From the NCBI GenBank assembly GCA_008632985.1, contig QPGO01000364.1, positions 1 through 38,795 on the forward strand: a stretch of 38,795 nt of DNA, written 5' to 3'. Positions within the stretch are counted from its first letter, which is position 1. Every line of letters begins with the position of its first letter. The notes beneath the pieces are model-generated. The model was not told where the DNA came from, did not search any database, and was given only the letters and a program-made list of their open reading frames with translations. The translations under genes and the position numbers were made by a program. Of this stretch, positions 223-38,795 are shown one piece after another. Source of the DNA: Psammoneis japonica (taxonomy: Eukaryota).

Positions 223-939
223 AATTTTCGTGGATGACATCGATCGCCAAATTCTGTTAATTGCCCCACTCATTGAAACAACATCGCCAAAGTGCAGGTT
301 GGTTGTAAATGACATCAATCATTTCACAACTTAGTTGGACAATGTTTCTCTCCAGTTTGTCGCCAACCCGGACAATTTGTCGCAATTCGCATCTTTTCGC
401 GACAAATCATCAATTCATTTAAGAAAATGTCACCAAATGCGACAAAATGCCGTGTGTCCCTGGCATGTGCTGCAGCCAATTTCAAAAAGCAGATGGAGAC
501 TGGCTCAGCTGGAAATGGGGGACTTGTGTGCAAAAATTCCTGTTTGCGTGTCAGTTGGAGCATGCTGCAGTCAACCTGAAAAAGCCAACCAGCTCACATG
601 TGAGCGAACAAACAAGTGCACAGAGAGGGCAGCCAGTGCGTGGGTCACTTGCTTGGTGCTTTTTGTTGGAAACAGGGAATCTGCGTGCTGAAGCCCCTGT
701 TTCCATGGCAGACAACAGCCAGTGTGGCAGGAAACCTCAAAAAGCTAACCAACTTAACAATGGCGCTAAGAGCTCTCCAACTGACCCACATGCCCAGCAT
801 TTTAGCTTGCTCCAGGGCTGCCTGTGTGACAGCCCATGTGGCCTGTGAGTCCATTTGTGGAGCCCTGCAATCCCGAACTCAACGCTGTCAAGTTTGCCAG
901 CGTGTTGCTCCATGACTGCAAAGCTGGCTGATGCACCAA

Positions 940-1230
940 AACACTTTGTTGGAGTTCTCGGCTTGCCGACCAGCACGTTTTTGGTTTTGCCTGCTCCCAG
1001 CTCACCGTGTGGCTTGCAAACACATTGCCAATGGCCGCCAACTGCTGCTGACATGTCAACCAGGTGCAAAAGCTAAAATGTGAGCACAAAAGACCAGCGA
1101 CTCAATCCTGGCTGTAAACACAAACTTGCCGTGTTGTTGGCAGTGGCCAGCATGTCTTTCCACTGCAGTTTTGTCTGTCTGTCTTGCAAAAACTGCTTCC
1201 AACCTTGATGTTCCAACACACACTCCTTCC
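940..1230. repeat. Diverged ~290-bp direct repeat, copy 1 (copy 2 at ~2270-2550)
   Basis: Colinear shared blocks: GCTTGCCRACCAGC, TGGCTTGCAAACA, TGAGCACAA, AACACAAACTTGCC, CAGCATGTCTTTCC, TTTGTCTGTCTGTC, TTCCAACACA. Confidence 0.85.
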
Positions 1231-1329
1231 CACACAAGCTGCCAACTGATCGGCCTCATGCATGTCATGCGCACAGGAGGATGACACTTGGGGTCCGTGC
1301 CACCCAACACCATGTCAACAATTCCATTG

Positions 1330-2160: not shown

Positions 2161-2269
2161 TGTTCTTCTGACATGCTTGCCAATCTTCCTTGTGGTGTCC
2201 GCACAAGCACCTGCCTGCAGCATTGTGACAACACCAATCCTTTGGGTGTTGTGCCGTGCCTTTTTGGCT

Positions 2270-7219: not shown

Positions 7220-8262
7220 CAGCACAAAAGTCTGATGAGATTTGCCAATTCCTTCACTCCATTGGAGCCAGCCTGTGCCTGCTGGAGGAAGGAACACCAT
7301 GGTCAAATTGTGCTGAGCTCTGCATCGGCTTGTTGAAGGAAGTGGTCTGCAAGGACATGGAGTCACACTGTCCCCTTCCCCTCTGGGACTGCTGTTTTGA
7401 GTGACAAGCCCGCATCAACAACCTGATGGCTTGTAACCTGCTCCAACTTGAGGGGAGGAATCTGCACTTCTCCATGACAGGGGAGGAGGGCAATGTCTCC
7501 AACCTTGCTCAGTTTGGATGGCATGAATGGTGCTGCTTCCGTGAGCACACTGACCCATTTCCCTTTGACCATGGATGGGAAGCCAGATGGGTGCTTGATG
7601 GACACAAGACCTCCAACCCCAAGGGTTTGACATGGGCTGGGGTTGTGTCCAGGGAGAGTGTCCAAATTGTGCTGATGTGTGCTGCCCTGAATGATGTTGA
7701 TGTAATGGCAGCCCACATCCAGAAGGTGCACTTGCAGGCTCCATTGCCTCAGAAGCACTGTGTCACAGGTTGCCCCGAATTTGGTCTTGAAAATGTGGGC
7801 AAGCATGCTCTCATTCGCCGGGCTTTGTACAGAGGCAAGTTGGCTGGGCATGACTTTTAGAATCACCTTTGTGCGTGCATGTCACACCTTCAATTTGAGC
7901 TTTGCAAGGCTGATCCTGATGTGTGGACGCATGTGGCTCTTAAGGAAGATGGCACTGAGTGCTTGGAGCATGTTCTCCTGTGCACTGATGATGTGCTGTG
8001 CATCTCGAATGATGCATTGGCAAGCACTTCCCCCTTGAGGAGGCCTGGATTGGACCTCCTTGCTTGTGTCTGGGTGGCCACTTGTGAAAGGCAGAGCTTC
8101 AGAATGGAGTCAAGGCATGGGCTTTCAGCTCTTCTCAGTGCACCCAGGTGGTGGTCAAGAATGTGGAGACTTGCTTGGCATCAAGGGGCAAGAAGCCACC
8201 AGCCAAGGCACCAACTCCTCTCAGCAGCTTGCATCACCCTGAACTTGACACAAGTGTGGAAC
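7220..8262 (+). mobile_element. pol: Copia element D, left part: integrase core fused by deletion to RT
   Basis: EEGTPWSNCAEL, LWDCCFE, FGWHEW (integrase), then ARWVLDGH, AGVVSRESV, RALY.GK, KADPDVW, VLLCTDD, HPELDTSVEL. The frame resumes after element A at 16088. Confidence 0.85.
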
Positions 8263-8476
8263 TGACAGGATTTGAACAAGATTTTAGTTTGTCATGCACA
8301 ATCATGTGTGCTCTGAGTTCTGCACGCGACGCGTGATGTAGTTTGCTTTCGAGCCACTCGGTTCTCAAGAATGATGAAAGCTCCTGTTACGGTCTCTGTA
8401 CGGAGACTCATCTGCTGTTTAGACAGCAGCAAGGAGTTGTTGTTTTCTTCCACCCAGTCATCTTCAATTTCTGTCA
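8263..8476 (+). repeat. 5' LTR of element A (214 bp)
   Basis: Starts TGACAGGATTTGAACAAG and ends TCAATTTCTGTCA; matches 14653-14739 plus 15922-16087. Confidence 0.93.
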
Positions 8477-9313: not shown

Positions 9314-12300
9314 ATGGTTCTCACCAGGCAGCAACAAGTCAATGGCCTTGAGCACATTTTAGGCACTGTTCTGAATCAAGCTGCAGACAGTCCTTTGCGC
9401 TCTGCCCTCAGCATTGACGGCACTGACTCATGCCAGGATCTCTTCACTTTCACTCTGACACAACTGGATGCCCCAGTCTCCACAATGACAGCACCAATCA
9501 AATGCCCCTGCCACATGACTGCAAAGCGCAGACAGCTGTGTTGATTAGTCTGCACATGGTAAAAGTGCATGGCAGCACCGATGTTCGCAACAACCCCAAC
9601 TTGTTCACACATGAGGAGTTTGCTGACTGTCATCTTAATCCCAGGTGTGCAGCATCCCTCTCCATGGGTGTGGTGCCATCTGCTCCCACTCCTGGCTCAT
9701 TGCCCCCAAAACCACGTGACCCCATGCATGACTTTAAACATGGCATCAAACATGACCCACTCACCTTCATGACTCTCAAGTCTGCCAAACAGTGGCACAC
9801 ATGGCACACCTCCATTGTTGCACAGGCCTGCTCCCAGGATGCCGACCGCATCCTTGATCTAAAGCACACTCCCTCTACAGCTGAGGACAAGGCCCTGTTT
9901 GACAAACAACAGAAGCACATGTTCACAAACATGACCTGCCCCCCAATGAACCTGATGATGATGTGTTCTTTGACATCAACAGTGATGTTAACATCATTCA
10001 AGTGCATGCTGCACAGACTCGCGGCACAACTCCCTCACCAGGGAACAATGGCATCACATTCCGCCAGATCACCAGCGCATTTGGGATGCCTTGCCCCAAT
10101 CCACCAAGGCCATCATCCTTGGCTTGGGCACTGCCCATGCTGGCAACTGCCATGACTTGAAGGCAGTCAGCCTGCACAACCTCCATCTTGGCAGTGATGG
10201 TGATGTCAACTTGTCTGCCAACACCCATGATCTTATGTCGGCCCCTGAACCACCCGATGCTGCGGCCAACTCAGCTGGTGCTAACCCCATCCTGGCTCAC
10301 CTCACCAGGTGCAAGCCTTTGCCACCCGGCAACTTACAACGTCTCCTGGCACCTGAACAGCCTCCTTCAGCCTGCTCTGGCGAGAAACCCCCTGGATCTG
10401 TGCCTTCTGTCTGCTTTGACAAGAAACCCAATGGATCTGTGTCTTTCCGTAATGCCGACACTGACATTGAGATCAATGGTCACAAATGCCGTTGTGTCAA
10501 CAACCACAATGTCGTCCACTCTGCATCGACCCACAACTTGACTCACAAGGGTGCTCTCGTGGATCGTGGTGCAAACGGTGGTGTTGCCGGTGATGATGTT
10601 TGTGTCATTGCCTGCACTGATCACCAGGTTGACGTGCAAGGCATCGACAATCATCAGCTTGTCAACATTCCCATTGTCACTGCCAGCAGTGTCATTCACA
10701 TGCAACGCAGACTTGTCATCACCATTCTTCACCAGTGCACACTCTTGCGGCCAACTCGAGCAGCACAATCACAATGTCAACAACGGCATCACCACTGTTG
10801 ATGGATGCATCATTCCTGTCGACATCAAAGGTGGCCTTCCACACATCACCACATGTCCGTACACTGATGCCAAATGGGACACCCTGCTGCATGTCATTCT
10901 CACTGGCAATGACACATGGGACCCATCTGTCCTTGACCACCAGTTCACCAACAATGAGAAGTGGTGTGATGCTGTGTCTGACCCACAAGACGACCCTGCC
11001 ACCAACCTCTTGATGAGTTGGGCAACTGTGGTCACCAACACATTGTCAACAACACCATGCTTGCAGACTCCGTCCTTGATGACCACCTGCTCCCAATGTC
11101 CCATTTCTTCTACGAATGCCACGAGCGCGAGATCAATCCCAAGGATGCCGACTTTGAGTTTCTTTGCCCTCATTTTGGCTTTCTCCCAAAGGACACTGTT
11201 TGCCACACTTTTGATTGCACAACACAGTGCATCGGCATGCCCAAAAACACGCACCTGAAAAAAGTGCACAAGTTGCCCAACCTGGCTCTCAATGTCCACC
11301 AACACAATGAACCCATTGCCACTGATGCAGTGTGCTCTGACACCCCTGCCGTTGACTCCGGATGCACCAGCACCCAACTCTTTGTTGGTGTGGAATCTCT
11401 TGTCATGGACGTGCATGGAACCAAAACTGACAGGGAATTCATCAACATGTTTGAAGACAACATCCGCAATGGTGGAACCCCGTCCAAGCTCATCAGCGAC
11501 CGTGCTCAGGTTGAGATCAGCAACAAGGTCCTTGGCATTCTTCGTGCCCTCTTTGTCTCTAGTTGGCAAAGTGAGCCCCACCAACAGCACCAGAATTTTG
11601 CTGAACGCCGCTGCCAAACTGTGAAGACCATGGCCAACACCATCATGGATCACTTTGGATTTCCAGCCTGCACCTGGCTGCTCGCCTTGATGTGTGTGTG
11701 TTTTGTGCTCAACCACACAGCGTCTGCCAAACTCCACTGGTGCACCCCCACCAAGGTGCTGTCAGACTCTGCCCTCGACATCAGCCCACTCCTTTGCTTT
11801 CAATGGTGGGAACCCCTGTGCCACCACTTGGATGATCCCGACTGGCCATCCGAATCCCGCTAGTTGCGTGGCCGCTTTGTGGGCATTGCCAAACACATGG
11901 GTCATCACATGACATTCAAGATTCTGTTTGACAACACTCAGAAGATTGTTTGCCACTCAAACATGCATTCCGCCCATGATCTGTCTGCTCCGAACCTGCA
12001 TCTTGATCCTCCTGACAAGGAATCTGCTGAACCCATCATCAAATCCTGACACAACTCCAAGGATTCACCAGAATCACCACATGGGGAGGCAATCAGGATG
12101 CCCAAAATGCTGGTCTTTGACCCCGAGGACATCATCAAATGCACCTTCCTCATGAAGCCACAAGTGGACGGACAATGCCACAGGGCCCATGTCATCAAAG
12201 CCATTGAAAACCATGACTGGAAAATCGGAGACAACCCTGAACTGGTCAAGTTCATTTGCTCCATCAACAATGATGAATGTGAGGAAGTCCTTGCCCACAA

Positions 12301-14640
12301 TGACATCATGCATCACATCAAGCAAGAAGACAAGGATTCTACCCTCTGGAAGTTCCGATGCATTGTCTCCCATGAAGGACCATTGAGACCTCACAATCCC
12401 TCTTGGAAAGGCTCAAGCTGCAACATCATGCTCAAATGGGAGAATGGGGAGATCAAGTCTGAACCCCTTGCCATCATTGCCAAGGATGATCCCATCACCT
12501 GTGCCATTTGCGCATGCCAACACGGTTTGTTTGAGACTGAGGGCTGGAAATGCTTCTGGACTACAGCTCTGCACCAGAAAAAGCTGTTCTGCATGGCCAA
12601 TCAAGCCAAGTTGCACTCCTTTCACACTGCGCCACGATGCAAGTGCGGGTTTGAAGTGCCCCGGGACTACAAGCACGCCTTGGCCCTCAATGAGCGCATC
12701 GGCAACAACAAGTGGGGAGATGCAACAGACCTCGAGATGACTCAGCTTGATGAGTGCAAGGTCTTCCACAACTGCAGACATTACAAGGACTCCAGTGCTC
12801 CATCAGCACACAAGAAGATTGGGGTGCATCTCGTCTGCAATGTCAAACATGATGGACGGCACAAAGCATGACTTAATGCCGATGGACACCTCACCAATGC
12901 ACCCATTGACAGCATCTGTTCTGGAGCAGTGTCTCTCCGCGGCCTGCAAATGATGATCTTTCTGGCAGAACTCAATGACCTGGAGATTTGGGCAACCAAC
13001 ATTGGGAATGACAGCCTCAAAGCTGCGACCAAGGAGAAACTGCACATCATTGCAGGTCCCAAATTCAGCAAGCTAGAAGGACACATCCTTGTCATCCACA
13101 AGGCCTTGTACAGACTCCGCAGCTCCCACCTCAGGTGGCATGAACCCTTTGCCAATTCCTTGTGTGCCAAAGGTTTCTTCCCATGCAAAGCCAAACCCGA
13201 CATCTGGCTGCGTGGGAATGGTGACAACTGCAAGTGCGTGGCAGTGTGTGTGGATGACCTGGCCTTTGCCATGAAGAATCCCCAGGCTTTTGTAGACACT
13301 CTCATGGAGAAGCACAAGTTCAAGCTCAAGGGCACTGAACCATTGGAGTTCCATCTTGGTTGCGACTTCACCCGTGATCCAGACAGCATCCTGTGCCTTG
13401 CTCCTTGCAAGCACATTGAGTGCATGGTTGACAACCATGCACATCTCTCTGGGGAGAAGCCTTGCACTGATGTGCTTTCACCTCTTGACAAGAGAGATCA
13501 CCCTGAGCTTGACACCTCCAAACCACTCCGACCGGATGGCATCCACCAATTCCAGTCCTTGATTGGCTCCCTGCAATGGGCTGCATCCCTTGGTTGCATT
13601 GACATTGCTGCAGCTGACATGTCCCTGTCTAGCTTCCATGCAGCGCCCCGTCAAGGCCACCCAGACCGTGCCAAATGCATCTGCGGATTCCTCTCCAAGA
13701 TGCACAATGGTGCCCTCCGAGTGCACACTGAGGAGCCCGACCATTCAGACCTTCCGAAGCCCGTGTGTGACTAGACCCAATCTGTGTGTGGGGAGGTAGA
13801 AGAGCTGCTCCTGCAAGATGCACCTGAGGCACTTGGCAAGTTCATCACCATGACACACTGCATCGATGCAAACTTGTTCCATTGCATGCTCACTGGATGC
13901 TCTGTCACAGGCATCCTTCATTTCCTCAACAAGTTTCCGGCTGATTGGTTCTCCAAGAAACAAGCAACAGTTGAGACTGCTGTGCATGGATCTGAGTTTG
14001 TCACCGCAAGGACGTGCGTGCGCACCAAGGAGCCGGACCATTCAGACCTTCCCAAGCCCGTGTACGACTGGACCCAATCTGTGCATGGGGAGGTAGAAGA
14101 GCTGCTCCCACAAGATGCACCCAAGGCACTTGGCAAGTTCATCACCATGACACACTGCATCGATGCAAACTTGTTCCATTGCATGCTCACTGGATGCTCA
14201 GTCACTGGCATCCTCTATTTCCTCAACAAGTTTCCGGCTGATTGGTTCTCCAAGAAACAAGCAACAGTTGAGACTGCTGTGCATGAATCTGAGTTGATCA
14301 TTGATCTGCGCATCACTTCATGTCACCTTGGCATCCTCATTCGTGAAACATGTTACATGTTTGGGGATGACAAGTTGGTTGTGGACAGTGCCACCATCCC
14401 GCACTCCAAGTTACACAAGTGACACACTGCCCTCTTGTTCCACCGTGTGCGTGAGGCAATTGCCTCCAGTTTCTTCAAGTTCCATTTCATCAAAGGTTCC
14501 CGCAACCCAGCTGACATCCTCAGCAAGCACTGGGGTCACTCCCAGGTCTGGAACCTCCTTTGTCCTCTAATGCTTTGGAACTTCAATCCTGAGGCTTTCA
14601 ACCAATCTGACCTCAAATCTGTTGCTGTTGACCCCTCAAG
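9314..14640 (+). pseudogene. gag-pol: gag-pol of element A (stops, frameshifts, deletion in gag)
   Basis: gag DFKHGIKHDP..LK..KQW; protease ALVDRGANGG (~10555); integrase ATDAVCSD, LISDRA, SEPHQQHQNFAERR; RT VKHDGRHKA, KALY.L, AVCVDDL (13247), HPELD; RNase H DANL.H, KKQATVETA, GDDKLVV, NPADILSKHW. Confidence 0.92.
13721..14295 (+). repeat. In-frame 297-bp tandem duplication at the RT/RNase H boundary of element A
   Basis: EPDHSDLPKPV...KKQATVETAVH occurs twice, starting at ~13721 and ~14018. Confidence 0.95.
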
Positions 14641-14641
14641 C

Positions 14642-14652
14642 AAATTGGGGAG
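14642..14652 (+). other. Polypurine tract of element A
   Basis: AAATTGGGGAG immediately before the TG of the 3' LTR. Confidence 0.8.
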
Positions 14653-16981: not shown

Positions 16982-17198
16982 GAGGGGGAGTGTTTTAGTC
17001 TTCAGTCTGTCCGTTGTTGGATGGACAAGGTGACTGACACATTTGTTGGTTTGGTTCTCATGAAGTAAGACTTTGTGACGATGTCTTTGACATTCTGAGG
17101 ACATTGGCAGAAGACCAAGAGATCCACTTGAGGATCATCTCACAATTTGAACAGATCATGTTTCATTGCTGATTTGTTCCATTGATGCACTTTTAGCA
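16982..17198 (+). repeat. PPT and probable 3' LTR of element D
   Basis: GAGGGGGAG (16982-16990) followed by TGTT, downstream of RNase H. The right end is approximate and no partner LTR is visible. Confidence 0.55.
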
Positions 17199-17199
17199 G

Positions 17200-18920: not shown

Positions 18921-18924
18921 GATG

Positions 18925-20104: not shown

Positions 20105-20267
20105 GGTTGTGGAGACCAAGTTTACACGTTGACGAGAGCTCCTGACCGAGTCATCATCACGGACGCTTTTGGTTTTGATTTTGAAGCAAACCAGGGGAAT
20201 TGGCTGAGACTCACTCGCTTCTCTCGTCTTCACACTGACAAGAACCTCCCATGCTACACTCTCTGTC

Positions 20268-22438: not shown

Positions 22439-22824
22439 TTTCTACGCCGCCAGCACAAACTCCCAACCTTGCATGGGTTTCCAGCCTCCTGGATGGTCCT
22501 GTCCATTGCAGTTGTGGTGTGGTCAGCAGTTTATGCCGGTCAACAGCCCCAGCATCCATTTGTGAACGTGCCAAGCCGATTTTCGACCGCCAGCTCTCAA
22601 GTCTACCACATTGTGGAAGAGTTGGATGACCGGACAGTGTTAGATTCCGGGTCGCTGTTCGAACATGACAGGATCAAGGGCACGCAAGTACTCACCGAGT
22701 TTGTTGCACGCCATCCATCGCACGCACTGAGCACTCGTCTCAAGGCCTGCTGGGAGACCCTCTAGAAGTCGCTGAATGGTCTGATGCGATAGACGAATCA
22801 GCCTTCTTTGATGCTTGTGAGGAA

Positions 22825-25169
22825 TTGGAACCTCTCGATGACCAGAAGCACTTCTTTGACGCTCTTGAGGACTTTAGCCCTGATTTCTTCCGGTTCGACG
22901 AGCTCTGTCTGCCCCATCACGTCATGGACACTGCCCATTTTCAAGATCCTGTGGAACCATTGGAAGAAGCACGTGTTAGACCAGTTGTCTACAACACCTC
23001 CACCATCCAACTACTCACTGGACAATCTCAAGCCGACCTTCTTGCATCTGATCTGCAGGCGCTCATCGGTCTGTCGGACGAGACACTCACGGTTGTCATG
23101 GACACTGGTGCCACGTTAACTGTTGCTCCCGATGAAGATGATTTTACAGGACCCATGACTGTTCCCAAGAAACCCCTGCAGATCAATGGGATTGCCAATG
23201 GTCTCACCATCCAGGGCACCAGTCTGGTTGCGTGGGTGTTCACAACGCCAAGTGGTGCTGCCATCCAATTGAATGCCATGGTGCACTACGTCCCTGGAGC
23301 CCGTCAATGCCTGCTGTTGCCTCAATGCCTCTTTAACGAAGAGAAGGGTGTGCGTGGGAGGTGTGATGGCGATGAGCACACTTTCCGTTTACATGTTGAC
23401 GGGATGGGCAAGTTGGTCATGCCACATCACCAATCAAGCCACTTGCCTGTTTCGTTGATGACCAAGGGTGTATCTGCAGCTCCCCGAGTGAGTCTGCAAA
23501 TCCTCAACGAAGAGAACCAGAATCTCACAGCAGGCCAAAAGCTTCTTCTAGAAATGCATGCACGTTTTGGTCATTTAAACTTTGGTCAAGTCCAAGCATT
23601 TCTCCGTGCAGCTCCATTCCTGTCAAATCATTTCAAGTCCACAGCGAAGTGTGACCACCCAAGATGTGAGGTGTGCGAGCATGCAAAAGGTCACAGACGC
23701 TCTCTCAGATCTACCCACAAGTCGACAGTCCCTGAACGTGACAGGGCCCTTCGTGCTGACCATCTTCGACCGGGTCAGGCTGTCAGCGTTGATCATTTTG
23801 AGTCGCGCCTCTTAGGTCGAACCTCTGACTCATGTGGGAAAGCCACATCCAAGCAATTCAAGGACGGTTGTGTCTTTGTAGACCATGCCTCTGGATGCGT
23901 CCAGGTCGAGCATCAACCAGGTTTCTCCACTGTCGAGACGATGCGAGCAAAGCAAGCACATGAGAAACATGCTTTGGACCACGGTGTCATCGTCCAAGAA
24001 TTTCTTACCGACAGTTGCGCTTTCAAGGCCAATGCTTTTGTACAACACACACGAGAGCATGAACAACGTCTCTGTTTTTGTGGAACCAACACCCATCATC
24101 AGAACGGCGTGGCAGAGCGGGGCATCCGAAGCATCTCCAACATGGCGAGAGCGATGTTGCTTCATGCATCAATCCACTGGAAGGGAGGGATTGACAGCTC
24201 ACTGTGGCCCATGGCTGTTTCTTGTGCCACGCACATCTACAATGTCACCCCAAATTCCAAGGGACATTGCCCAGTGGACATTTTCACCGGTTCGACAGTG
24301 CCTTGACATCGCTTGTGAGACATTCACACATGGGGACATCCAGCATGCGTCCTTGATCCAAAACTCGCCTCTGGAAAGAAACTCCCGTGTTGGGAACCAC
24401 ACACTCATTGCGCTTTGTTGGTGGGACTCAGTGCCATCCATTCCAGTGAGGTTCCTCTGGTCCTCAATCTTCAAACTGGAAGCGTCACTCCTCAGCATCA
24501 TGTGGTCTTTGACGATCTCTTCACTGCCGTGCCATCAATCAAGAGGGAGACGGATCCACCTGATCACTGGGAGCACTTGTGTCTCAACCAATTGACATGC
24601 ATCCCTCTGGAGAAGGATCAGATGGTCCACCTGCATGATGAGTGGCTTGCTCCTCCAGAGCGTCAACATAAAGAGCAAGACCCAGCCAGAGAGACGCGCA
24701 TTCGCGGCCATTTTGAGCCTGCTCCATCGATCACTGTGCCAGATCCACCCATTTCTCGTGATGACGTTTCCAATCAAGTCACACCTGTGACTCAACAGCC
24801 AAGGCCACCAGTCCCACCTGTGACTCAAACTCCTACAGACTCTGTGGAATCTACACCAATTCAGCCACCTGAACCTCAAGACAGCAACGGACTTCTGCCA
24901 CCCGAAGCGCCGACGGAACCAACAGCTCCTCCCCCAGTCGAGACACCTCCTGTGAAGAATCCAGAGGGAGCATCAGGGCTGCGACAGTCTTCAAGGTAAA
25001 CCAAAGGACAGTTCAACTCTGCCAAGTTCACAGATGAAGTCTGCTTTAGTTCCATCAAGGAAATGCCAATGCCGATTGGACACGAGGCTCAGCTGGCTTA
25101 TCTGGCGACTCTTGAGATGGATTTGGACAGTGGTGCCATCAATGTCGATGATCCCCAAGCCTGCGCAGC
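22825..25169 (+). pseudogene. pol: Protease-integrase region of element C
   Basis: VMDTGATLTV; HARFGHLNF..C..C (HHCC); VSVDHFES; HHQNGVAERGIR; LWPMAV; VLNLQTGSVTPQHHVVFDD. Confidence 0.92.
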
Positions 25170-25539
25170 TGGTGGTTGTCCGTACAAATGCCACAATGCC
25201 ACATGTGGCATTTCTTTCTATGGTGAAACTGGTGCTGATTCTACGTAATGCCACATAAAATGCCACATTTTGCGCATGAAAAAGCGTGCCGGCGATTGAT
25301 TCGTGGCCCCCGACTGCGACGAACTCATTTCTCATGTGTTCAGAAGCCTTCCAATGCTTCTTCTGATCACTTTTCCCTCATGTTAACCATGCGCCCCTGT
25401 GCCCTGCAGTGTTTAATGCTTTGCCATCAACGGCAAAACAATTGGGGATCATTGGAAAAACAGTGGTGGCATTTGGGATCAAAATGCCATGTTCATGCCA
25501 CATTTAGGGCAAATGTGGCATTTGTGCAGATGACCACTA
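25170..25539. mobile_element. MITE (~370 bp) with ~25-bp TIRs and repeated AATGCCACA/TGTGGCATT subterminal motifs
   Basis: CTGGTGGTTGTCCGTACAAATGCCACA versus reverse complement of the right end CTAGTGGTCATCTGCACAAATGCCACA. Removal restores ..ACAASKKTKDPD. The TSD is TA or CTAG (ambiguous, palindromic site). Confidence 0.85.
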
Positions 25540-25725
25540 GCAAGAAGACCAAGGACCCTGACATGCCTTCGTCACACAATGCTCTGAAAGGACCGGATGC
25601 CGAAGAATGGATTGAGGCAATGAAAATCAAAGTCAATGCACTCATGCATCATCAAGCCTGGAAAGCAGTCAAGCATCAGCTGCATGTGAATGTACTTCCA
25701 GGTACATGGGCACTTAAGCTCAAGA

Positions 25726-26119
25726 CGCGTTCCAGCTCTAGGTGGGACCTCGTACTGCTGAACTGTGACACAATTATTTTTTGTCATCCGTCGCATGTTT
25801 CTCACGTACATTTCTACGTGTTCTCTGTCATAAAAAATTGTTCCACACTGCCTGTTTTGCGAAGCCAAAGGCTTTCTGTTGTCCACATTTATGACAATAA
25901 AAATGCACTGGGTGTGTTCTTTAATGTCTGAAGAACACACCTGGGCACACTGTAAAGAATGTGCTTCAAGTGTGGAGGAGGAGATACGTTCGCAAAATTG
26001 CCTCTTTTTCTGTTGGCGATTATTCATGTATCCATTGCTTGACAATTTTACTACGGAGCTCGCACGTAGAATTCTATGGGCCCAATGTCACAAAAAGTCC
26101 CACACAGGACTGGAACCTG
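25726..26119. mobile_element. MITE (394 bp), hAT-like, inserted in the RT of element C
   Basis: Imperfect ~25-bp TIRs (CGCGTTCCAGCTCTAGGTGGGAC vs CAGGTTCCAGTCCTGTGTGGGAC). Flanks GCTCAAGA / TCTCAAGA (8-bp TSD, 7/8). Removal restores TWALKLKRLPDG. Confidence 0.8.
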
Positions 26120-27630
26120 TCTCAAGAGACTCCCAGATGGAACCCCTCTGAAGCACAAGGCCTGACACTGCGTCTGCAGTGATTTACAGAAAGAGGGAGT
26201 GGATTGTTTTGAAACCCATGCGCCGGTCGTGCAGTGGTCCAGCATCTGACTCATGCTCACCACAGCATTGAAGGAAGGATGGATTGCACGTCAGGTGGAC
26301 TTTGCCACAGCCTTCTGCCAAGCCGACATCGCGGAGGAAGTTTGTGCAAACACCGCCAAAGGGTTTTGCAGCAAGGTCGGGACTCAATGTGGTTTTCAAA
26401 CTTTTGAAAGGACCACATGGCCTAAAACAGTCTCCCAAGGGCTTCTACAAGAAGTTAAGAGCTGGTTTAATCAAGCACGGATGGGCACCCTCAGCCATGG
26501 ACCCCTGTTTGTATTTCAAAGAGGGTGTGATGTGTGTGGTGCACGTCGACAACACAGCATTTGCTGGAGCTTCAGCTGAAGCTCTAGAAGAAGAAATTTG
26601 CAAGTTAGGAGTTTCCGACGATGAGCATCGACACGTGTTTGAACTCAGAGACAAAGGAGAAGTCGGTGACTTTCTTGGTGTCAAGATCGAAAAGCTCTCC
26701 AAGGGTCAATTTCTACTCACTCAACCTGGTCTAATTGACAAGGTCCTGCGCACCGCACAGATGCAGGATTGCAATGGAGCATCCACTCCAGCTCTGCCTG
26801 CGGCCATTGGTGCCGACACGGATGGCCCACCTTTTGATGAACCCTGCCATTGTCGCTCAGTTGTTGGAATGTTGATGTGCTTGGCAGCGAACAGCCGGCC
26901 AGACATTGCGCATGCTACACATCAAGCAGCTCGATTTTCATTTGCACCCCAAGCGTCCCACGCTGCTGCAGTGAAGCAGATGCTCCGATGCCTCAAAGCC
27001 ACTGCTGCTGAAGGTCTCATTCTCAAGCCTGCGCAAGATCATCAAGTTGATTGTTGCGTTGATTCTGACTTCGCGGGGTCATTTGGTGTGGAAGATGGTC
27101 AAGACCCAGTTTCTGTCAAGTCCAGGACTGGACACCTCATCCACTGCACCGGCTGCCCGCTCATCTGGGTGTCCAAGCTGCAGACTCTTGCAGCATTGTC
27201 GACCATGGAAGCGGAACATGTCACACTTTCTCAAGCCATGCGCAATCTCATCCCTGTTCATGAAGTTCTCAAGGAGCTCAACCACCATGCATTCAGAAAG
27301 TCTGACCGCCAAAACCCCACCACGACTCACTCCAAGGCTTTTGAGCTCGCAAACCAAGGCACCGATGACTCGCCTGTTGAGCAGAATGTCCCACCTGTGT
27401 CCATTGTGTACGAAGATAACTCCACATGCCTCAAGTTCGCATGTGTGCCCAAGTTGTCTCCACGAACCAAACACATCGGTATCCCACACCACTGGTTTAG
27501 GACTAAAGTTGAACAATTGGAGATCGACATCCAACCCATCAGCACTCCAGAGCAACTGGCCAATCAGTTCATGAAGGGACTGCGGACCGATGCATTCTGT
27601 GCAGCTAGAAAGGCTCTTGTGGGCTGGTGA
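26120..27630 (+). pseudogene. pol: RT-RNase H of element C (RT begins ~25540)
   Basis: EGVDCFETHAPVVQW, QVDFATAF, HGLKQSP, DPCLY, VHVDN, FLGV, VGMLMCL..NSRPDIA, VDSDFAG, LSTMEAEH, YEDN, RTKHI. Confidence 0.93.
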
Positions 27631-27651
27631 GCTCTCTCGGTTGAGAGGGAG

Positions 27652-27887
27652 AGTCACGACTCAACGTCATTCTGGTCACATCTCACGACTGCAACCCAGA
27701 CTCAACTCTTTTCTTCGAAACATCTGGCTCATCTCACAATCCGATTCAAAACAGAACCAACGACTTTCATCACAATATCTAGACAACGACTTTGAACCAA
27801 GCGTCTGTTCACTCTGTTGTTGTTCACATTGCTGCCAACCTCCAAAGTCTTATCCATCCTGCCAAGCTGCAGGACTGTGTCTCGACT
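27652..27887 (+). repeat. 3' LTR of element C
   Basis: Follows the PPT; AGTCACGACTC...TCTCGACT, then TSD TGCAC. Confidence 0.92.
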
Positions 27888-28374: not shown

Positions 28375-31300
28375 CTGAATGCACACAGAAATGGGTTGCA
28401 AATGGCAGTCTTCAACCACCTTGTTTGTTGGTGGTGTGATCCAAGATCCATTGGGTAAACACCGAATGGGATGGTGTGCTGTGCCTCTGGCACATCGAGC
28501 GTCAAAACCTTCAAGACGATTGAGGGAGCCAGCAGACAAAACCCATGTTGCCGATCCAAAAACAGTGTCTGTTGTACAATTGTTCAATGGAACCTGCCCA
28601 TTGTTTCAACAGATGCTCCATCAGCTTGTGACAACTTTGAAAACCGACTCCAAATGTGTCTTGCATGCAAACATGCACAGCATTGTCTTCTGAATCGTCC
28701 GATGCTAAGATTCGTCCAAGATGCCAAAAACTTGAAACACATTCAATTGGTTTGCCATCAATTTCAAAAGGAACAGACTCATCTGAGATCATCAAACATT
28801 GTTGATTCAAAAGGATCCATGCTCGACGTTCCGATTGAGCAATGCAAAACTGGGATTGGAAGTGTTTCTCTGTCAAACAAATGACCAACATGCCACAACG
28901 AGGGCATTGAACAAATTGTGAAGGGGTTCCAGTCAAATGGAAATGATTCAACGGATGTCGGATGCACAGGTGACGGTGAAGGCTGCACGAATCATGAAAT
29001 GCAAACAAGTTGGTCAAGGAAGCTGGGCACTCAGGGACTGGGCAGACCACACATTCAGAGTTTAAACTGATTGAATGGTGATTGAGCGAAAGTGGAAGGT
29101 CAGTTGCACGTGAGCATTTGCAAGGTGGGGGCAAAGTGCAATCGTCTTCAGTGCTCACATTTTCATCAAGCACCAAATGATGGACATGGCGAATGTGAGC
29201 AGGCAAATGCTGATTGCTCATTGCACCACAGCAATGAGGACATGGCACTTTTGCAAGCTTCCGAGCACGATAAGCAGGAGTGTCATCGGAATCGAAATGG
29301 CACTTGCATGTGATGTTTGACATAAAGTCAGGATGAGGATGACCTGTGCTTGTCATTGCCTTTGTCTTAACGACATTTGGAAGCAATCCATTGTGAGCAA
29401 ACAAGTTCAGAAGTGCATCAAAATCTTCCTGTGCACTGTCCCTGTCAAAACCAGCGATTCGACCATCATCGGCACAAAACTCACCAACAGCACACAGTCA
29501 ACAATGACATTCAAAAACAAAGGAGAAAGGACATCTCCTTGCCAAATCCCTCGATCCAAGCCAACAGGTGAACCGTGGCACCCCATCTGTCAAAGCACAA
29601 GACAGGCATTGTCCCAGTTTCGGTGGAGAAATCATCGAACATTTGGACCAAAACCGCAGGCTTGCAAAACAACAAGCAAATGTTTGCGATCAACAGAGTC
29701 ACATGCTTTTGTCAAGTCAAGGAATGTTTGGAAGTGCGGAACAGCATGGAAAGCCTCCCATTGCATTTCCAATTTTGCTTCCAAAACAGCCATCTCACAA
29801 CCACGTTGAAAACGAAAGCCACGAATGTCAGGATGAAATCGAATCACTTGAACCACTCGCAGACACACAATCATTCCCCACAACTTGCACAGAATCTCCA
29901 AAAGAGTAATGCCACGAAATTTGCCGTGTTGATTCTTAGGAATGAGAACCAATGTTGCTTGTGAGTGGGCCATCAGAATTTTGTACCCCAGGAACGAAAT
30001 CTGAACCAAACCAATCATCAATTGCCATGCATCAGGAGCTTTTCGTTCCCACTCGAGCAAATGTTCGACTTTCATTTTGGAAGGACCAGGGGCACGACCC
30101 CAGTGCAGATGATGCAAAGCCTCCCGAATTTCGTCTTCTTCCGGCATCTCATGGGGGATGTCAAAAGGAGTGATCTGTGGGACAAGAGGAAGAGCAGCAA
30201 CAGGTTGCCATGAGTGCAACATTTCGCATTCATGACTGAGTCATTGGAGATCTTCAAACAACGGTTTTGACTGGAGGTTGCTTTGTTCACGACACCAGCC
30301 AGATGCAGTTTTTGGCAAGCCTCATGAACTTGTCCATTCATGAGATGATGTTCAGCTTGCAAAGCTGTTCGAGCTGCACATTCCTCATGATCCTTGCAAA
30401 AAGCAGCATGAATCTGGTGACCCAATGAGTGAAACTGAGAACAACATTCCGCATGACACAATCCCTGAATGGGTCTCTCAATTTGAGCATTGGTGTGCGA
30501 ACGAGTTTGTTTTGCCACTGGTGGATTGTCAAGATGATGATGAAATTTGTGCTGATGCACAAGAGCAGAGCGACAATCAATCAATCTCCACGTTTCTTGC
30601 AAAATCCACAAGGAATCATGTTGAGAAGGTCGAGATTGTTCACACTCTTTAGAAAGTGCACACAAAGAATCAAACATCTGATCCAGGCGATTCAAAGGCC
30701 AAACCAGTTGAATTGGGAACTTGTGAAGTTGTTGACACCATGAATGCTGAAGCTGAACAAGTTTCTTCAGTTGAATTTCCGTCACAATGGCCCGATGATC
30801 ACCATGGAACCGGGGCATTTTGACAACCCAACAAGAAAACTGTTGTGCCACAACACAATCCGTTGTAGAATGAATGCATGGCCTGATCTCCATTGAGACC
30901 AAGTCCATTTGCCACAAGGATGCGCAAAAAAGCTGCGACGTCCGACAAATCCAAAAGAGAGGTGAGAGTGGCAATCTCTTCATCTCGAGTCAAAGAAAGC
31001 CTGCTCAGATTGCAGTTGAAATCTCCCATGACAATGAAAGGGTGTTTTGCATTTCGAGCAGCTTGTCAAGAAAATTCAAAGTAGAGCCATCAACTTCTGA
31101 CAGAGGAAAATGGGCACCAACACAGATCCAACAATGATTGCCCAAAACCAAAGAGCAATGAAGAACATCAGGCCCAAATGCCTGAATGCCTTCAATTGTC
31201 CAACAAGAAGAATTGTGACAAAACAATGCGACACCTCCTTTAAAACCATCTGAACAAGTGGCATGTGCTGAACAGCCTTCACAATTTTGTGCACATTTGT

Positions 31301-31650
31301 CATGTGAAAGTTTGACTTCCATTGAGAATCCAAAATCAACCTGCATGTGATTCATCTGACGAAGTGCCATGTTCAAATTGTTCCCACCAGCATGGATGAC
31401 ATTGCAGGTGATCATCCGAGTGAGTCCATGATGAGACGACATGATGAAACATGGCAACACCAAAAAAAGGGGGTCTTTCAGAGCTTGCACGTGGGCTGTC
31501 ACAGGAAATTAACTCAGACCCAACATCAAGAAGCATTTGCAAGTTTGAAAAACATGATCAAGCAACAAAATGTTCAAAGAACTTTTCCAAAATGACACCA
31601 AAAACTGTCAATCCAACTCCAAAGGGAAGATGCCACACAGAGTCAAGGGC
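28375..31650 (-). mobile_element. Decayed non-LTR retrotransposon (APE endonuclease + RT, RTE-like) with C2H2-type fingers after the RT core
   Basis: APE: ITCNV, EVKL, GGVALF, MGDFN, DHRAI. RT: APGPS, LVLIPK..GKFRGITL, GFR..RG, FLDLTKACDSVDR, QGDVLSP, FCADDG (29479-29462), NVVKTK. Then CPHC..HIRHVH, CPVPEC..HLCIRH, CPRC, FWHLGR, FGSATW. Confidence 0.9.
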
Positions 31651-31722
31651 ATGAAAAGGTGACAGCAGCAATGCTTTTGCGTCAGAGCTGTGAGAAATGC
31701 CAGGCTTGCAAAACCTGGGGTG

Positions 31723-31723
<1 letters not shown>

Positions 31724-31807
<84 letters not shown>
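31724..31807. repeat. (TG)42 microsatellite
   Basis: Uninterrupted 84-bp TG run. Confidence 0.97.
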
Positions 31808-33784: not shown

Positions 33785-34575
33785 TTTCAAGGAAAACAAA
33801 CACGCCATTTGAAGAAAAACAAACACGTCATTTCAAGGAAAACAAGCATGTCTTTTCAAGGAAAACAAACATGTGTTTTAAAAAAACAAACAAACATGTC
33901 TTTTCAAGGAAAACAAACATGTCTTTTCAAGGAAAACAAACATGTCATTTCAAGGAAAACAAACATGTCGTTTTCAAGGAAATCAAACATGTCTTTTCAA
34001 GAAAAACAAACATGTCGTTTCAAGGAAAACAAACATGCTGTTTCAAGGAAAACAAACATGTCGTTTCAAGGAAAACAAACATGTTGTTTCAATGAAAACA
34101 AACATGTTTTTTTAAGAAAAACAAACATGTCTTTTCAAGGAAAACAAACATGTCTTTTCAAGGAAAACAAACATGTCGTTTCAGGGAAAACAAACATGTC
34201 TTTTCAAGGAAAACAAACATGTCATTTCAAGGAACACAAACATGTCATTTCAAGGAACACAAACATGTTATTTCAAGGAAAACAAACATGTCTTTGCAAG
34301 GAAAACAAACATGTCGTTTCAAGGAAAACAAACATGTCTTTTCAAGGAAAACAAACACGTCATTTCAAGAAAAACAAACCTGTTGTTTCAACAAAAACAA
34401 ACATGTTGTTTTTAAGAAAACAAACATGTCTTTTCAAGGAAAACAAACATGTCGTTTCAAGGAAAACAAACATGTCATTTCAAGAAAAACAAACACGCCA
34501 TTTCAAGAAAAACAAACACGTCATTTCAACAAAAACAAACATGTCGTTTGGAGGAAAACAAACATGTCTTTTTGA
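33785..34575. repeat. Minisatellite, ~23-bp unit TTTCAAGGAAAACAAACATGTCN, ~34 copies
   Basis: Head-to-tail units with point variants and no spacers. Confidence 0.95.
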
Positions 34576-34589: not shown

Positions 34590-34765
34590 GACAGCTGAGA
34601 ATTGGTTGTGAGACAAGACAGAGTGTTGAACATCATCAACAGGTTCTAGAGTTGTGAGATGTTGCGCCGCTGGGGCCGCTGAACAAGCGACAGTGGACCA
34701 ATCGCCAACAGTGTGTGAGCTGCCTGCATTCGTGACAGCATGTCAGCATTCACTTAGTCCCCTCG
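34590..34765 (-). repeat. Probable PPT and 3' LTR of family B copy 3
   Basis: Minus strand reads GAGGGGACTAAG|TG at ~34764-34751, downstream of RNase H. The distal end is uncertain. Confidence 0.45.
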
Positions 34766-34899
34766 AACTGACACCAGCTCTGCTCGGGCCAGATCGACAG
34801 ACAAATGCAACCTGATGCTGCCCCATTCTAGGGTGGTGCTTTTGTTTTGGGGATGGGAAAAGCCACACCTGCGCAGCAAACCCGCTTGGTTTGTCCCCT

Positions 34900-37800
34900 T
34901 TTGGGACTCCCCACAGGACATGACTTGTGATTTCCTGGAGCTTCAGTCCAGGCAACAACTTGGTCAATGCGTCCGCTAGATTCGTGCGTCTGTCTTCCCA
35001 AGCAATGCGCGCTGTTCCAGCGGCTTGTGCCTCGCAAGTCCTGTGATGGGCAATTGCATTGTGCTTCTTCTTCAAAGTGGACTCCGGCTCAGTTGAGTTC
35101 TTGAAGACAGCCTCATTGTTGCAGAAAACGTCAGCAGCCCCATCCATGGGGATTCCGAGCATCCGAAGCTTGCAGCGCAAGGCTTCGATTTGCTCCACTG
35201 CAGTCTTCATGGCCACGAACTCCGACCCAAAAGCAGAGGACTCTACGACATTCTTCCGCTTGAAGCAACACAAGATGGGTGCTCGTTGGACAAATGTCAG
35301 GATCCCAGTGAGGGACCTGCGCGTCACACGGCATCCGGCATGGTCAGCATCAACAAAGCAAGTGGCAGTCACGCTGTTCCCGCGTGCCTCCGGCATGTTT
35401 GGTGGCATTGGTTCAGCCGCACCAGGGTGACATTCTTCCCAATCACACTTGGCAAAGCGAATCTCGTCAAAGACAGGCTCAGTGTTGTCGAACACCAGCG
35501 CAGACTTAGAGCAAGCCTTCAAGCATGCGAAGACATGGAGCACCTCGTCCAGGTGTCCAACTGGTGGTGCTGCCAAGCAGGAGGACATGAGCGAGACAGC
35601 GACAAAAGTGGCCACTCGCCCCAGTTCAACTGCCCATCGTAGCACACCAATGAGGCCTTGACAGCAGTTGGCCGTTTTGGCGTTCAACTCAGGTGAACCG
35701 TCCAGCTCAGGCCTGTGTGCCAAGCTCAAGGGCGTCGACGCCTTCGTTGGAAGACGCCTGTCAGTTTTCTTGAGCTCCAGCTCAACGTCAGCTGATGCCC
35801 TTTTGACAAAAAGGTCAGAGGACATGGCCCAGCGTGTCTCACTGTCCGAGTCAGACAGCTGGCACTTTCTGATCTGGGCGCCTGAGTGCTCTTCCGGCTC
35901 GCAGACACTTCCGTCCTTGAGTGTGTGCCCAGAGCTCACACAATCCATGACCTTCTGAGGTTCATGGGAGACGCACAACAAGTCGTCCACATAGACAAGT
36001 GCATGTTCCCAGCACTTGAAGCCATCCGGCTTGACCGCAGCCCGCATCCAGACATCTGGGCCAGCCTTGCAAGACTTGAACCCAGCATCCCGCAGAGCAG
36101 CTGCCACATGTTCCCCAAATCTTGCACCTGAAGACTTGAGACCATGCAAGGCACGGACAATGATCGCCGGCCTTCCCTCGTTCTGCTCCCCGAATTCCAG
36201 GCCAGCAGCAGTGCAACACATTTCCTCAGTGTGTGCGTTCAAGCAGGCACTCTGAACGTCAGCGCTCAGGACCTCCAGGTCATTCAGAGCAGCTGCAGTG
36301 AATGCTGTCCTAATGCTGTCACGCGACACCATGCTGGAATGGGTCGATTCCTTGGGTGGATCAGTTTGGTGGCCTCCAGCCACGAACCTCGCTTTGCGTT
36401 GGAGGGTGCTTTTGATGTCAAAAATCATGAGACAATCAATGTGTTTGTGCCCGACCGGCACAGTGTTGTCATCGCAGAATTCGAGCGCAGGCATGACGTT
36501 GCACATTTCCTTCTCGACAGCCTTGAACCAGAAGTCGGTCCCTGTTCTGTTGTCCATTTCCACAGCTTCCTTGACAGATTTCGGGAGCTCAATTCCGAAC
36601 TCATGCGTGCGTTTCCAGTGACGCGACTTGACTTTCTTCAGGATCCTTGATCTGCGATGCAAGACGTCTCAGACCCACCAGTTGAAGGCTGGCTCACTGG
36701 CCACTTTGTTCGCTGCAGCGCACTCAGCAACCTCGACTGGATTGGACTCCTTCAAATCCTTGAGAGGAGCCCAGGATGCAGTCCCATCCTTCCATTTGAC
36801 TTGCAGGTCCCAGCCTGCGGTCGTCCTCCTGGGAGCACGCCTGCCAGTCTCAGTCATTGTGTGCCCGTCATCAGCCATCACGGCACGGACATCACGTCGG
36901 TGATCGACTGTCTCCTTCATGATCTGGCAGGCATTCCCTTCAGAGTCGATCTGAGCGAATGGGTTCTCTGCAATTTCATCAGCAGCACAGGAATCAGCGG
37001 ATCCATCAGGGAATTCCATGTCGCATGTCCTCGAGTCCAGGACAGGGTTGTTGTTCCCAGCACCAACAGGAACCCCATCACTGTCTCGCTTGCGTGCAAT
37101 GACCCTAGCATGAGTCAGCTTGCCTCCTCGTGGTGACATGACTTGAGCCGTGAGATGCTCATCTGGCCCTTCCGGGGTGGGCTCATCAGCTTCCGGTTTG
37201 GAAGTGTCAGGTTCCACGGGTTCAACGGCATCATCCCATTCATCCATGAAGTTGTCAGGGAGTTCAGGGAAGTCAGCACTGGCGTCCTTTTCCGGGATGC
37301 TAAGCCATTCGATCAAAGCTTGATCGATGGATGCAAGATCCATCTGGATCGCCGGAGTTTTGAGGTCATCCTCCGGCATGGCCCACGCATCCTTCCGAAT
37401 GATGGATCACCAGAGTTTTAAGGTCATCCTCCAGCATGGCCCATGCATCCTTCCAAATGATGGGTTTGCCTGATTCGGGCAAAACAATGAATGCCATGTC
37501 GTCAGTGCAGTTGTCAGCTGCTCCGAGCCAACGGCCAATTCACTTCTTTTCGTGTGGGAACTCCACCACAGGCATGCAGCAACAAACAGGTTGACACCAA
37601 TCAAAGAGAGAGAGGGAAGAGATGTCGGGTGTCGAACCTGTCACCTCCTCTTCTGGGACTCGTCCTCCCATGTCCGACATGCCAGTTGCAATCATGCGTC
37701 CGATGTCACACATCCATTTGGCGCTGCAGGACCAAAGTAGCCTGTGAGCGCCAGTCCGGTGCAGAGTCACACGGACTCTTTTCTTCAACTCACGAGTGGA

Positions 37801-38795
37801 TGCCTCGGGCTGGGTTCTGCCAGGGGCTGCACGGGGGTGGACACCTCCTGGTGCATCCTGTGTTCCTTGCAGATCTCTTTGGTCTGGCCTTCTGCCATTT
37901 CTGGTGCGCCATCCAACACAAGGACCTGCGGTGTGCCATCGTCATGTGTGAATGACATGACGGCATCCGGGTGGTCCTGTTTCCTCTTCCAAGGACAGAA
38001 CCTGTCATGCCCTCTTCCGTTGGCAAACACACTTCCTCCTGTCTCGTCATGCATCGATTTGACCTTCGAAAACATCTGGTTGGAGTAGAAGCATCCCTTG
38101 ACAGCAGGGAACTTAAGCCAAGGGGCTTTCTTCCGGACTTTCCACTCGGATGGTGTGCAGACATTGCGGACCCCTGCCTGGGTTGTCACTCTGAGGGTGT
38201 TCTTGGCAGCCGTCAGGCCAATGTCCCACCTTTTAGAGAGTGTCTTGGGCGTGATGGTCGATGCACGACTCGAGGTCGACAGTGCACACACCCGTTTCCG
38301 CTTGGCACAATCCGGGTGGACATCCAGGTCACACCGGTCGTGTGGCCCGTCTCCCTCAGTGTCATTGTGGGGGACATTCACCTGAGCAACCAGGCGGTGA
38401 CACAAAGAATCGTCATCATTGGCATCCACAATGACGCTCTCGTCATGACAGGACGTTTGGTGTGAATGAATGGAAGCGACACACCTGGTCGCATTCATCA
38501 TCGTTGACCGTCCATCCGACTTTGCTGATCCTTGGCGCACACTGGCACATGCGTGCGCTTCCTCCTTTTGCGCCAGGGCATCAGCAGAAGGCTCCCATCT
38601 CAGGGGTGATGCAAGTTCCAGCCGGGGGAGGTTCTCCAGATCCTCCTTTGTCGGCTTGTGTGAATCAAAGTCTGAAGCAACACCTCACATTCGCAGTGGC
38701 ATCCTGATCTTCGAGTCAGGAAAAGAAATGGAGTGTGTGCCAGTCGGATCAAACTGGCGAGGGGTGTCGTGGACAATCAGCCCATTCGCTCACAG
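34900..38795 (-). pseudogene. pol: pol of copia family B copy 3 (IN-RT-RH), best-preserved copy, runs off the window
   Basis: 639-aa ORF with RKARFVAGGH, VSRDSIR, RALHGLKSSG, LVYVDD, RPELD, FVDADHAG..TRRS.TG, FGSEFVA, KKKHNAIAHH, NLADALTK. Upstream integrase ITPKTLSKRW..DGAPEM. Contains a 58-bp tandem duplication at 37345-37463. Confidence 0.93.

Follow-up and report, generated by a model that had tools for sequence, protein, structure and literature searches.

Contents of the window

The DNA analyzed here is contig QPGO01000364.1 of the diatom Psammoneis japonica, positions 1-38795 (hereafter the window, 38,795 bp in full), and all coordinates refer to it. The window is a repeat-only block of the nuclear genome, composed of at least three lineages of copia retrotransposons, a non-LTR retroelement of the long interspersed nuclear element (LINE) type, satellite DNA and unclassified DNA (LTR, long terminal repeat), and the dinucleotide TpA has been largely removed from all of it, with TpG and CpA found in excess. 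The best overall explanation, to which we assign a probability of roughly 0.55, is that a TpA-specific process, most likely an enzymatic deamination of adenine, acted on this DNA after insertion of the elements and turned roughly 85-90% of their TpA into TpG or CpA.

Pfam matches to RVT_2 were obtained at 12872-13771 (+), 26272-27627 (+) and 34746-36668 (-), together with an RVT_1 match at 29635-30240 (-) and a weak gag-pre-integrase match at 22669-24303 (+), with the scores of the mutated reverse transcriptase (RT) domains lying barely above threshold. The copia elements fall into no fewer than three divergent lineages (A, C and D), compared with the four families counted in the earlier note discussed below, and one LINE is present beside them. 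The pol region of element A shows 27% identity to D-family proteins in tblastn searches, the homologues of element D reach identities of up to 65%, and those of the LINE carry PF00078, PF14529 and PF03372. The homologues of the three best-preserved coding regions originate from metagenomes and from diatoms, such as Fragilaria crotonensis. The catalytic RT motifs of four elements read CTDD (7981), CVDD (13247), HVDN (26542) and CADD (29465-29476, minus strand), and the sole YVDD of the window is found in element D (35982-35993, minus strand). Comparison of the window with itself identified the LTR pair of element C, an LTR-like pair, a 297-bp tandem duplication and several diverged paralogous fragments. 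The position, strand and supporting evidence of each feature are compiled in Table 1.

Table 1. Features of the window, with the evidence on which each assignment rests.
Feature	Position	Strand	Evidence
TpA-depleted, TG/CA-enriched continuous tract	1-38795	.	dinucleotide observed/expected ratios, one-kb bins
copia element D; RT-RNase H open reading frame (ORF) at 34743-36662; integrase/gag remains upstream	34743-38684	-	RVT_2; homologues
copia element C; LTR pair 19893-20104/27652-27887; ~2200-aa-type polyprotein	19893-27887	+	LTR pair, RVT_2, weak gag-pre-integrase
non-LTR (LINE) retroelement, RVT_1 and endonuclease-type homologue	28375-31415	-	RVT_1 at 29635-30240; homologues
pol region of copia element A; contains the 297-bp tandem duplication (13721-14300)	11192-14723	+	tblastn
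copia fragments akin to elements D and A	17155-19754	-	70-80% identity
copia pol fragment, RT motif CTDD	7237-8285	+	tblastn high-scoring segment pairs; motif at 7981
LTR-like repeat, sister of 15990-16086	8379-8475	+	self-comparison
LTR-like repeat, sister of 8379-8475	15990-16086	+	self-comparison
23-bp satellite array, 34 copies	33785-34572	+	Tandem Repeats Finder (TRF)
(GT)44 microsatellite	31720-31807		TRF

Loss of TpA across the window

The whole window contains 297 TpA, compared to 2479 expected from base composition, an observed/expected ratio (o/e) of 0.12 for which chance is excluded as the cause. TG (1.73) and CA (1.65) are enriched, a polarity opposite to that of fungal repeat-induced point mutation (RIP), and CG is reduced (0.41). 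The ratios of AA (1.16), TT (1.12), AT (0.92), AG (0.96) and TC (1.10) are ordinary, as befits a loss directed at TpA only. All 38 one-kb bins present a TA o/e of 0.35 or less, and no island with a normal TA level was detected in the window, the highest o/e being 0.40. Every part of the window is depleted, including the unclassified DNA: the TA o/e is 0.08 in element D, 0.22 in element C, 0.06 in the LINE, 0.10 in the pol region of element A, and 0.05 in both the copia fragments at 17155-19754 and the satellite.

An earlier note on this DNA, made from the sequence, had proposed a pervasive hypermutation of TpA to TpG/CpA in repeats from position 430 to 38795, running opposite to RIP, and had illustrated it with a stretch of about 4 kb. 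The depletion is borne out and is wider than that stretch, since bases 1-430 are depleted as well (5 TA versus 30.9 expected). The count of 15 TA given for 34741-38795 is exact, against 204.6 expected, and the 639-aa ORF of element D, described as having a single Tyr, encodes 1 Tyr, 26 His and 28 Cys, with the strings RALHG, STHSS, NCCQG, LRCKL and AIAHH all present. The RT motifs CTDD, CVDD, HVDN and CADD were likewise located as quoted.

The loss of TpA has a direct effect on the distribution of stop codons. Counting both strands, the window has 212 TAA and 171 TAG versus 1976 TGA, with approximately 1250 of each expected. Because TAA and TAG have been nearly erased, 111 stop-free frames of at least 110 codons are found in 38.8 kb, many of them overlapping on both strands, and gene finders would over-call genes when annotating such dead DNA. 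The satellite units, in which CA and TG are present and TA is almost absent, show little variation from one unit to the next and are uninformative on the process; a founder unit already altered by the process may later have been amplified into the array.

The reduction of CG across the window is loosely coupled to that of TpA (Spearman 0.43, P = 0.007, 38 bins). The CG o/e is 0.63 in element D (TA 0.08), 0.62 in element C (TA 0.22) and 0.10 in the fragments at 17155-19754 (TA 0.05), and a CpG-type change (to His, Cys, Gln, Trp or stop) is seen at 19 of the 54 conserved Arg columns of element C and at 28 of the 61 of the LINE. This CpG decay is consistent with deamination of 5-methylcytosine, a second and ordinary process feeding the same pool of TG and CA. 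The end state is a sequence in which almost every pyrimidine-purine (YpR) step is TG or CA.

Direction of change at conserved columns

The direction of change was determined from the fate of strongly conserved alignment columns in three unrelated elements, two copia and one LINE, relative to unmutated homologues (60 for copia D, 33 full-length for copia C and 6 for the LINE) with a normal Tyr content of about 3-5%. The 19 conserved Tyr columns of copia D comprise 1 that is kept, 9 that read His, 8 that read Cys and 1 that reads Phe, in an element where 295 of all 367 conserved columns are identical. Copia C keeps 5 of 38, with 13 His, 12 Cys and 8 other residues (618 of 820 conserved columns identical), and the LINE keeps 1 of 16, with 6 His, 8 Cys and 1 Phe (375 of 513 identical). 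Pooling the three elements, only 7 of 73 conserved Tyr columns are kept, while His (CAY) and Cys (TGY) are each found at 28 columns, as opposed to Phe at 6. Since the sole single-step path to these codons leads from TAY to CAY or TGY, the ancestral dinucleotide was TA and the change proceeded from TA to CA or TG, in the direction that had been proposed, at 56 of the 73 columns.

Less stringent counts give a similar picture. In element A, 35 Tyr columns assessed by tblastn yield 1 kept, 8 His and 9 Cys. A cruder count on 23 tblastn segments covering all copia fragments yields 4 kept, 37 His and 42 Cys at 139 columns where the homologue has Tyr, with non-Tyr residues of the same segments being kept at 30-65%. 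The 72 changed conserved columns of element D include 27 single TA steps (16 TA to TG and 11 TA to CA), the remainder consisting of 8 CpG-type changes, 9 other transitions, 19 transversions and 9 multi-step changes.

Divergence of sister copies and use of the two strands

Sister copies within the window differ at 1000 mismatched positions, 304 of which fall in 152 sites where TG in one copy is aligned with CA in the other. The mirror control, AC aligned with GT, amounts to 27 sites, and any other adjacent double mismatch to at most 18. Such TG/CA pairs are accounted for by a single ancestral TA (or CG) that was resolved independently in each copy, and the changes at these 152 sites therefore postdate duplication. 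Many of the discordances are supplied by the copia fragments at 17155-19754, which share 70-80% identity with 36934-38660 and, inverted, with 13832-14712, and which contribute 38 and 26 sites in the two longest pairs.

The timing of the changes is most directly assessed in pairs that were identical at birth, namely the 297-bp duplication, the LTRs of element C and the LTR-like pair of element A. In these pairs, discordance affects 24 of 129 shared YpR steps but only 14 of the 329 positions elsewhere (P = 4.5e-6, odds ratio 5.1), in agreement with the earlier claim that the changes took place in DNA, after insertion or duplication. The two copies of the 297-bp duplication are 93% identical, and their 19 mismatched positions include 3 of TA type, 2 of CG type and 8 within TG/CA pairs. 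The LTR-like pair retains 96.9% identity over 97 bp, its 3 differences being one of TA type, one of CG type and one transversion; CTGTACGG at 8396, for instance, is found opposite CTGCACGG at 16007. All 12 of the sister-copy strings that had been quoted in support of this claim are present at matching offsets of 297 bp (duplication), 7611 bp (element A) and 7783 bp (element C).

Both strands are affected about equally, as had also been suggested, the ratio of His to Cys at conserved Tyr columns being 28:28. The order of His and Cys along elements D and C shows no runs (runs tests, z -0.24 and -0.61), and the orientation of TG/CA discordances in eight sister alignments forms 61 runs versus 60.5 expected. 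A TG/CA skew at P<0.001 was not detected in any one-kb bin. Strand choice hence looks random. The copies are near saturation, and many superimposed episodes could have erased strand coordination within an episode.

The copia D family outside the window

Element D was compared with 80 relatives, defined as metagenome loci encoding kin of its reverse transcriptase and retained as best matches. The TA o/e of these loci ranges from 0.48 to 0.98, and is at least 0.32 in every one of the 1341 one-kb windows into which they divide. This shows that the copia D family is not inherently TA-poor, and, the set consisting of best matches, it says nothing on mutated copies elsewhere.

The family was also traced in public run X1, which contains 37% of the sampled words of 34741-38795 and provides 4244 short contigs on this stretch: 487 with a likeness of 99% or more, 1049 at 95-99%, 1826 at 90-95% and 882 below 90%. 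The copia D family is therefore very abundant in X1, and the reads of this run, 487 of whose contigs are at least 99% alike to the stretch, carry the TA-poor sequence. Runs X2 and X3 gave no contigs on it, a result without evidential weight. Among family copies, 414 of 448 variable places (92%) are transitions. The X1 contigs listed span 142-211 nt with word depths of 24-51, and contigs so short and deep suggest accurate reads, independent of the assembly platform. The 40 best-supported differing places of the 448 are mostly private to the window copy, and 23 of them lie outside YpR steps. Comparing the window with X1 at these 40 places gives TG/CA versus CG at 11, TG/CA versus TA at 3, CG versus TG at 2 and TA versus CA at 1, counts that carry no information on polarity.

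Flanking bases of the surviving TpA

The TpA that survive in the window are unevenly distributed among sequence contexts. Only 51 of the 297 lie in ATA/TAT, versus 10,827 of 20,683 in the 80 unmutated relatives (P = 1e-35). With strands pooled, relative survival is 0.29 when the base preceding T is A, 1.04 for G, 1.49 for C and 1.48 for T, with nearly the same values in both halves of the window, and the contexts of TG plus CA in the window rank the flanking bases identically. TpA in ATA/TAT has therefore been lost most completely; the pooled contexts do not separate a preceding A from a following T. Excesses of the products by flanking base are confounded by CpG decay. Surviving TpA are also over-represented in CTA/TAG and TTAA (relative survival 1.9-2.4), which may mirror the ATA/TAT preference or reflect new TpA arising from C-to-T changes at CAG/CTG.

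Other features of the window

In the interval 8263-8475, the sequence just upstream of the LTR-like repeat at 8379-8475 matches the end of the element A pol region (14653-14723) with 86% identity, and the repeat itself has its counterpart at 15990-16086. The copia fragment at 7237-8475 and element A look like two tandem copies of the same family, each with an LTR-like repeat, rather than a single element with two LTRs. A stretch of 1.27 kb (14724-15989) separates the end of the element A pol region from its LTR-like repeat, the corresponding interval in the sister copy being only about 45 bp (8334-8378). With an o/e of 0.23 for TpA and 0.67 for CpG, this stretch is less depleted than the DNA around it (0.05-0.16), and would fit a later insertion that has been less exposed to the process. 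The satellite array and the (GT)44 microsatellite stand between the LINE and copia D. Near the beginning of the window, positions 82-159 hold a short tandem repeat of GTCGT/GTCGTGTCTT, and the next 63 bp (160-222) are imperfectly self-complementary, with 86% identity to their own reverse complement. The first kilobase has lost comparatively little CpG (o/e 0.73).

Proposed process and competing explanations

The signature, its direction, its post-insertion timing, its strand symmetry and its flank preference are all observed in the window, and a real mutation process specific to TpA, acting on DNA and of the type described in the chlorarachniophyte alga Bigelowiella natans, is very probable. 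As to chemistry, adenine deamination, which the earlier note had suggested alongside a mispairing modified base, is the leading candidate, at slightly under even odds. The process would have acted at the DNA level on elements that were already in place, with an enzyme deaminating the adenine that follows T in silenced DNA. The resulting hypoxanthine would pair with C at the next replication, converting TA to TG on the affected strand and generating CA when the opposite strand is affected. Each site would be resolved singly, with either strand equally likely and ATA/TAT most efficiently processed, and the outcome would be the permanent inactivation of the transposons. The process would thus be the diatom counterpart of the TpA-only hypermutation in the integrated viral DNA of B. 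natans. The existence of a dedicated enzyme, its choice of DNA and its role in defence are what we infer from this pattern.

Several considerations weigh against this account. The A and the T of TpA are indistinguishable as chemical targets from the sequence alone. No host gene was recognised in the window by a Pfam search of the 111 stop-to-stop frames, which returned retroelement domains and sub-threshold chance matches only. The 80 relatives, selected as best matches, form a set that favours unmutated copies. Run X1 has no recorded library type and could stem from the assembly's own sample, and its independence of the assembly platform is for these reasons only inferred. Lastly, the amphioxus protein BjADAT2, the one eukaryotic ADAT2 shown to edit DNA, is described as preferring GAA and TCG in hairpin single strands, and not duplex TpA (PMC10354150); for this reason, the idea of an ADAT2 enzyme is without support from known context preferences.

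The strongest alternative, which we nonetheless consider unlikely, places the lesion on thymine. The T of TpA in silenced DNA would be modified by oxidation or glycosylation, for example to hydroxymethyluracil or base J, and would then mispair with G or be misrepaired, resulting in a T-to-C change. TpA being its own reverse complement, the Tyr and sister-copy data fit a T target equally well, and the flank preference can be read as A-T-A as well as T-A-T. Hydroxymethyluracil in dinoflagellates, moreover, is reported to favor TpA and TpC. TC, however, is not depleted in the window (1.10), and known thymine hypermodifications are generally read as T by polymerases, so a high mutation yield would require an additional step.

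An untargeted, genome-wide bias from TpA to TpG/CpA, visible in repeats for want of selection, appears improbable. It would account for the depletion of every part of the window, unclassified DNA and satellite included, and the window offers no gene for comparison. Element C (0.22) and the 1.27-kb insert (0.23), however, hold more TA than their neighbors (0.05-0.10), as would fit differences in age or exposure, and in B. natans the process is described as confined to particular regions.

Even less probable is a sequencing artefact, in which the actual DNA contains TA and a modified base in repeat chromatin is misread as TG or CA, strand by strand, by the long-read basecaller. Such misreading would also produce Tyr-to-His/Cys changes and random TG/CA differences between sister copies, and the unrecorded library type of X1 leaves room for it. 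The 487 X1 contigs that are at least 99% alike to the TA-poor stretch are, however, short and of depth 24-51, as expected of accurate reads, and since some 190 TA are absent from these 4 kb, any reads bearing TA could reach a likeness of no more than about 95%. The elements, furthermore, have decayed in other ways, with 45 of the 72 changed conserved columns of element D not being of TA type and with stops and frame breaks present, and the same signature arose de novo in B. natans lines sequenced by Illumina.

The earlier note had also put forward error-prone patch repair of the Pol eta type, introducing WA-to-WG changes (W, A or T) at lesions in methylated DNA, and this we judge marginally less probable again. 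Pol eta makes A-to-G errors opposite T, following T or A, and the CpG decay that accompanies TpA loss is in line with repair of this kind. The idea, however, predicts a loss of AA, and it fails on this count, as AA (1.16) shows no depletion and AG (0.96) no enrichment. The changes at Tyr columns are, in addition, nearly all transitions (56 His or Cys versus 6 Phe), and in element D, TpA is strongly depleted (0.08) but CpG only mildly so (0.63).

ADAR-type editing of retrotransposon transcripts, fixed by reverse transcription before integration, would draw on the preference of ADARs for U before the edited A and on their hyperediting of repeat-derived double-stranded RNA, but it is contradicted by the strand symmetry, since it predicts A-to-G changes on the sense strand only and sense (Cys) and antisense (His) changes stand at 28:28, as well as by the differences at these sites within LTR pairs and the tandem duplication and by the equal depletion of satellite and unclassified DNA, and it is barely tenable.

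Going beyond the window, diatoms and chlorarachniophytes could share an old, dedicated defence enzyme that deaminates adenine at TpA, preferentially in TAT/ATA, within silenced or invading duplex DNA, at a single site and on a single strand each time. We regard this as a speculative proposal. If true, it would amount to a natural, context-specific DNA adenine editor, opposite in effect to RIP and working beside cytosine methylation, that operates near saturation in diatoms and shapes a large share of the genome.

Comparison with known systems

To our knowledge, the eukaryotic genome defences known to rewrite DNA, such as RIP and AID/APOBEC, act on cytosine. In Neurospora and other fungi, RIP is a homology-dependent, premeiotic process that involves a DNA-methyltransferase-like enzyme and converts CpA to TpA by C-to-T changes. 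The pattern observed here resembles RIP in that transitions in a dinucleotide context riddle repeats at the DNA level and kill transposons, and differs from it in that RIP enriches TpA, whereas in the window TpA has been removed and CpA and TpG are enriched. AID/APOBEC enzymes, which deaminate C on single strands and leave strand-coordinated clusters, likewise belong to the host and hypermutate nucleic acid that invades it, at sites defined by a few neighboring bases; their target, however, is C rather than A, and their strand-coordinated clusters contrast with the absence of strand runs in the window. Decay of CpG through 5-methylcytosine is present in the same DNA, lowering CpG and raising TpG and CpA, but is unable to remove TpA. 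TadA and ADAT2-ADAT3, together with the adenine base editors derived from them, convert A to inosine, which is read as G, as the proposed process would, and the natural target of TadA and ADAT2-ADAT3, A34 of tRNA, follows a conserved U33 and hence lies in a UpA context.

A literature search, with most subscription journals outside its scope, located no description of TpA loss in diatoms, including in a 2025 preprint on diatom transposons. The erasure of TpA through A:T-to-G:C changes has one prior report, a 2026 preprint on a rhizarian alga, B. natans (bioRxiv 10.64898/2026.01.13.699255), and the view of the earlier note that the phenomenon was undescribed, with no named system like it, does not stand, because the same TpA-only A:T-to-G:C hypermutation is reported there. 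According to the main text of this preprint, 231 of 302 new single-base mutations in Illumina-sequenced mutation-accumulation lines of B. natans fell in two integrated viral regions, all but one of these being A>G or T>C and all of them occurring at TpA. Reverse transcriptase and DDE domains are also reported to be over-represented among the low-TpA coding sequences of B. natans. For this hypermutation of integrated giant-virus and virophage DNA, Mettrop et al. propose an ADAT2-like adenine deaminase (bioRxiv 10.64898/2026.01.13.699255).

As far as the main text of the preprint describes it, the B. natans process is matched by the window in several respects. The changes are A:T-to-G:C transitions only, at TpA only, and yield TpG or CpA according to which strand is affected; over the long term, TpA becomes scarce and CpA plus TpG abundant, other A/T dinucleotides being spared in the window; and integrated foreign DNA is acted upon. 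The two cases differ in host, a chlorarachniophyte there and a diatom (a stramenopile) here, and in target, which here consists of retrotransposons and satellite DNA. Depletion is far deeper in the window (o/e 0.12, with most parts at 0.05-0.10) than in the viral region of B. natans (Rho 0.45), and TpA loss in the diatom window is accompanied by CpG decay. Neither a flank preference, here for ATA/TAT, nor a lack of strand runs is mentioned in the main text of the preprint. The mutation rate, in turn, was measured in real time in B. natans, whereas the window provides a relative excess only, that of discordance at YpR steps (24/129 vs 14/329).

With the window, the phenomenon reaches beyond one major lineage to another, and ordinary retrotransposons join its targets. 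The window contributes four observations: the direction of change in three unrelated elements, the lack of strand runs, the more complete loss in ATA/TAT and the contrast with 80 relatives. It also supplies many polarised sites from which properties of an enzyme may be read, namely strict TpA specificity, a preference for ATA/TAT and independent events on either strand, and these properties together define concretely what to look for in an enzyme that could prove to be a DNA adenine editor of natural origin.

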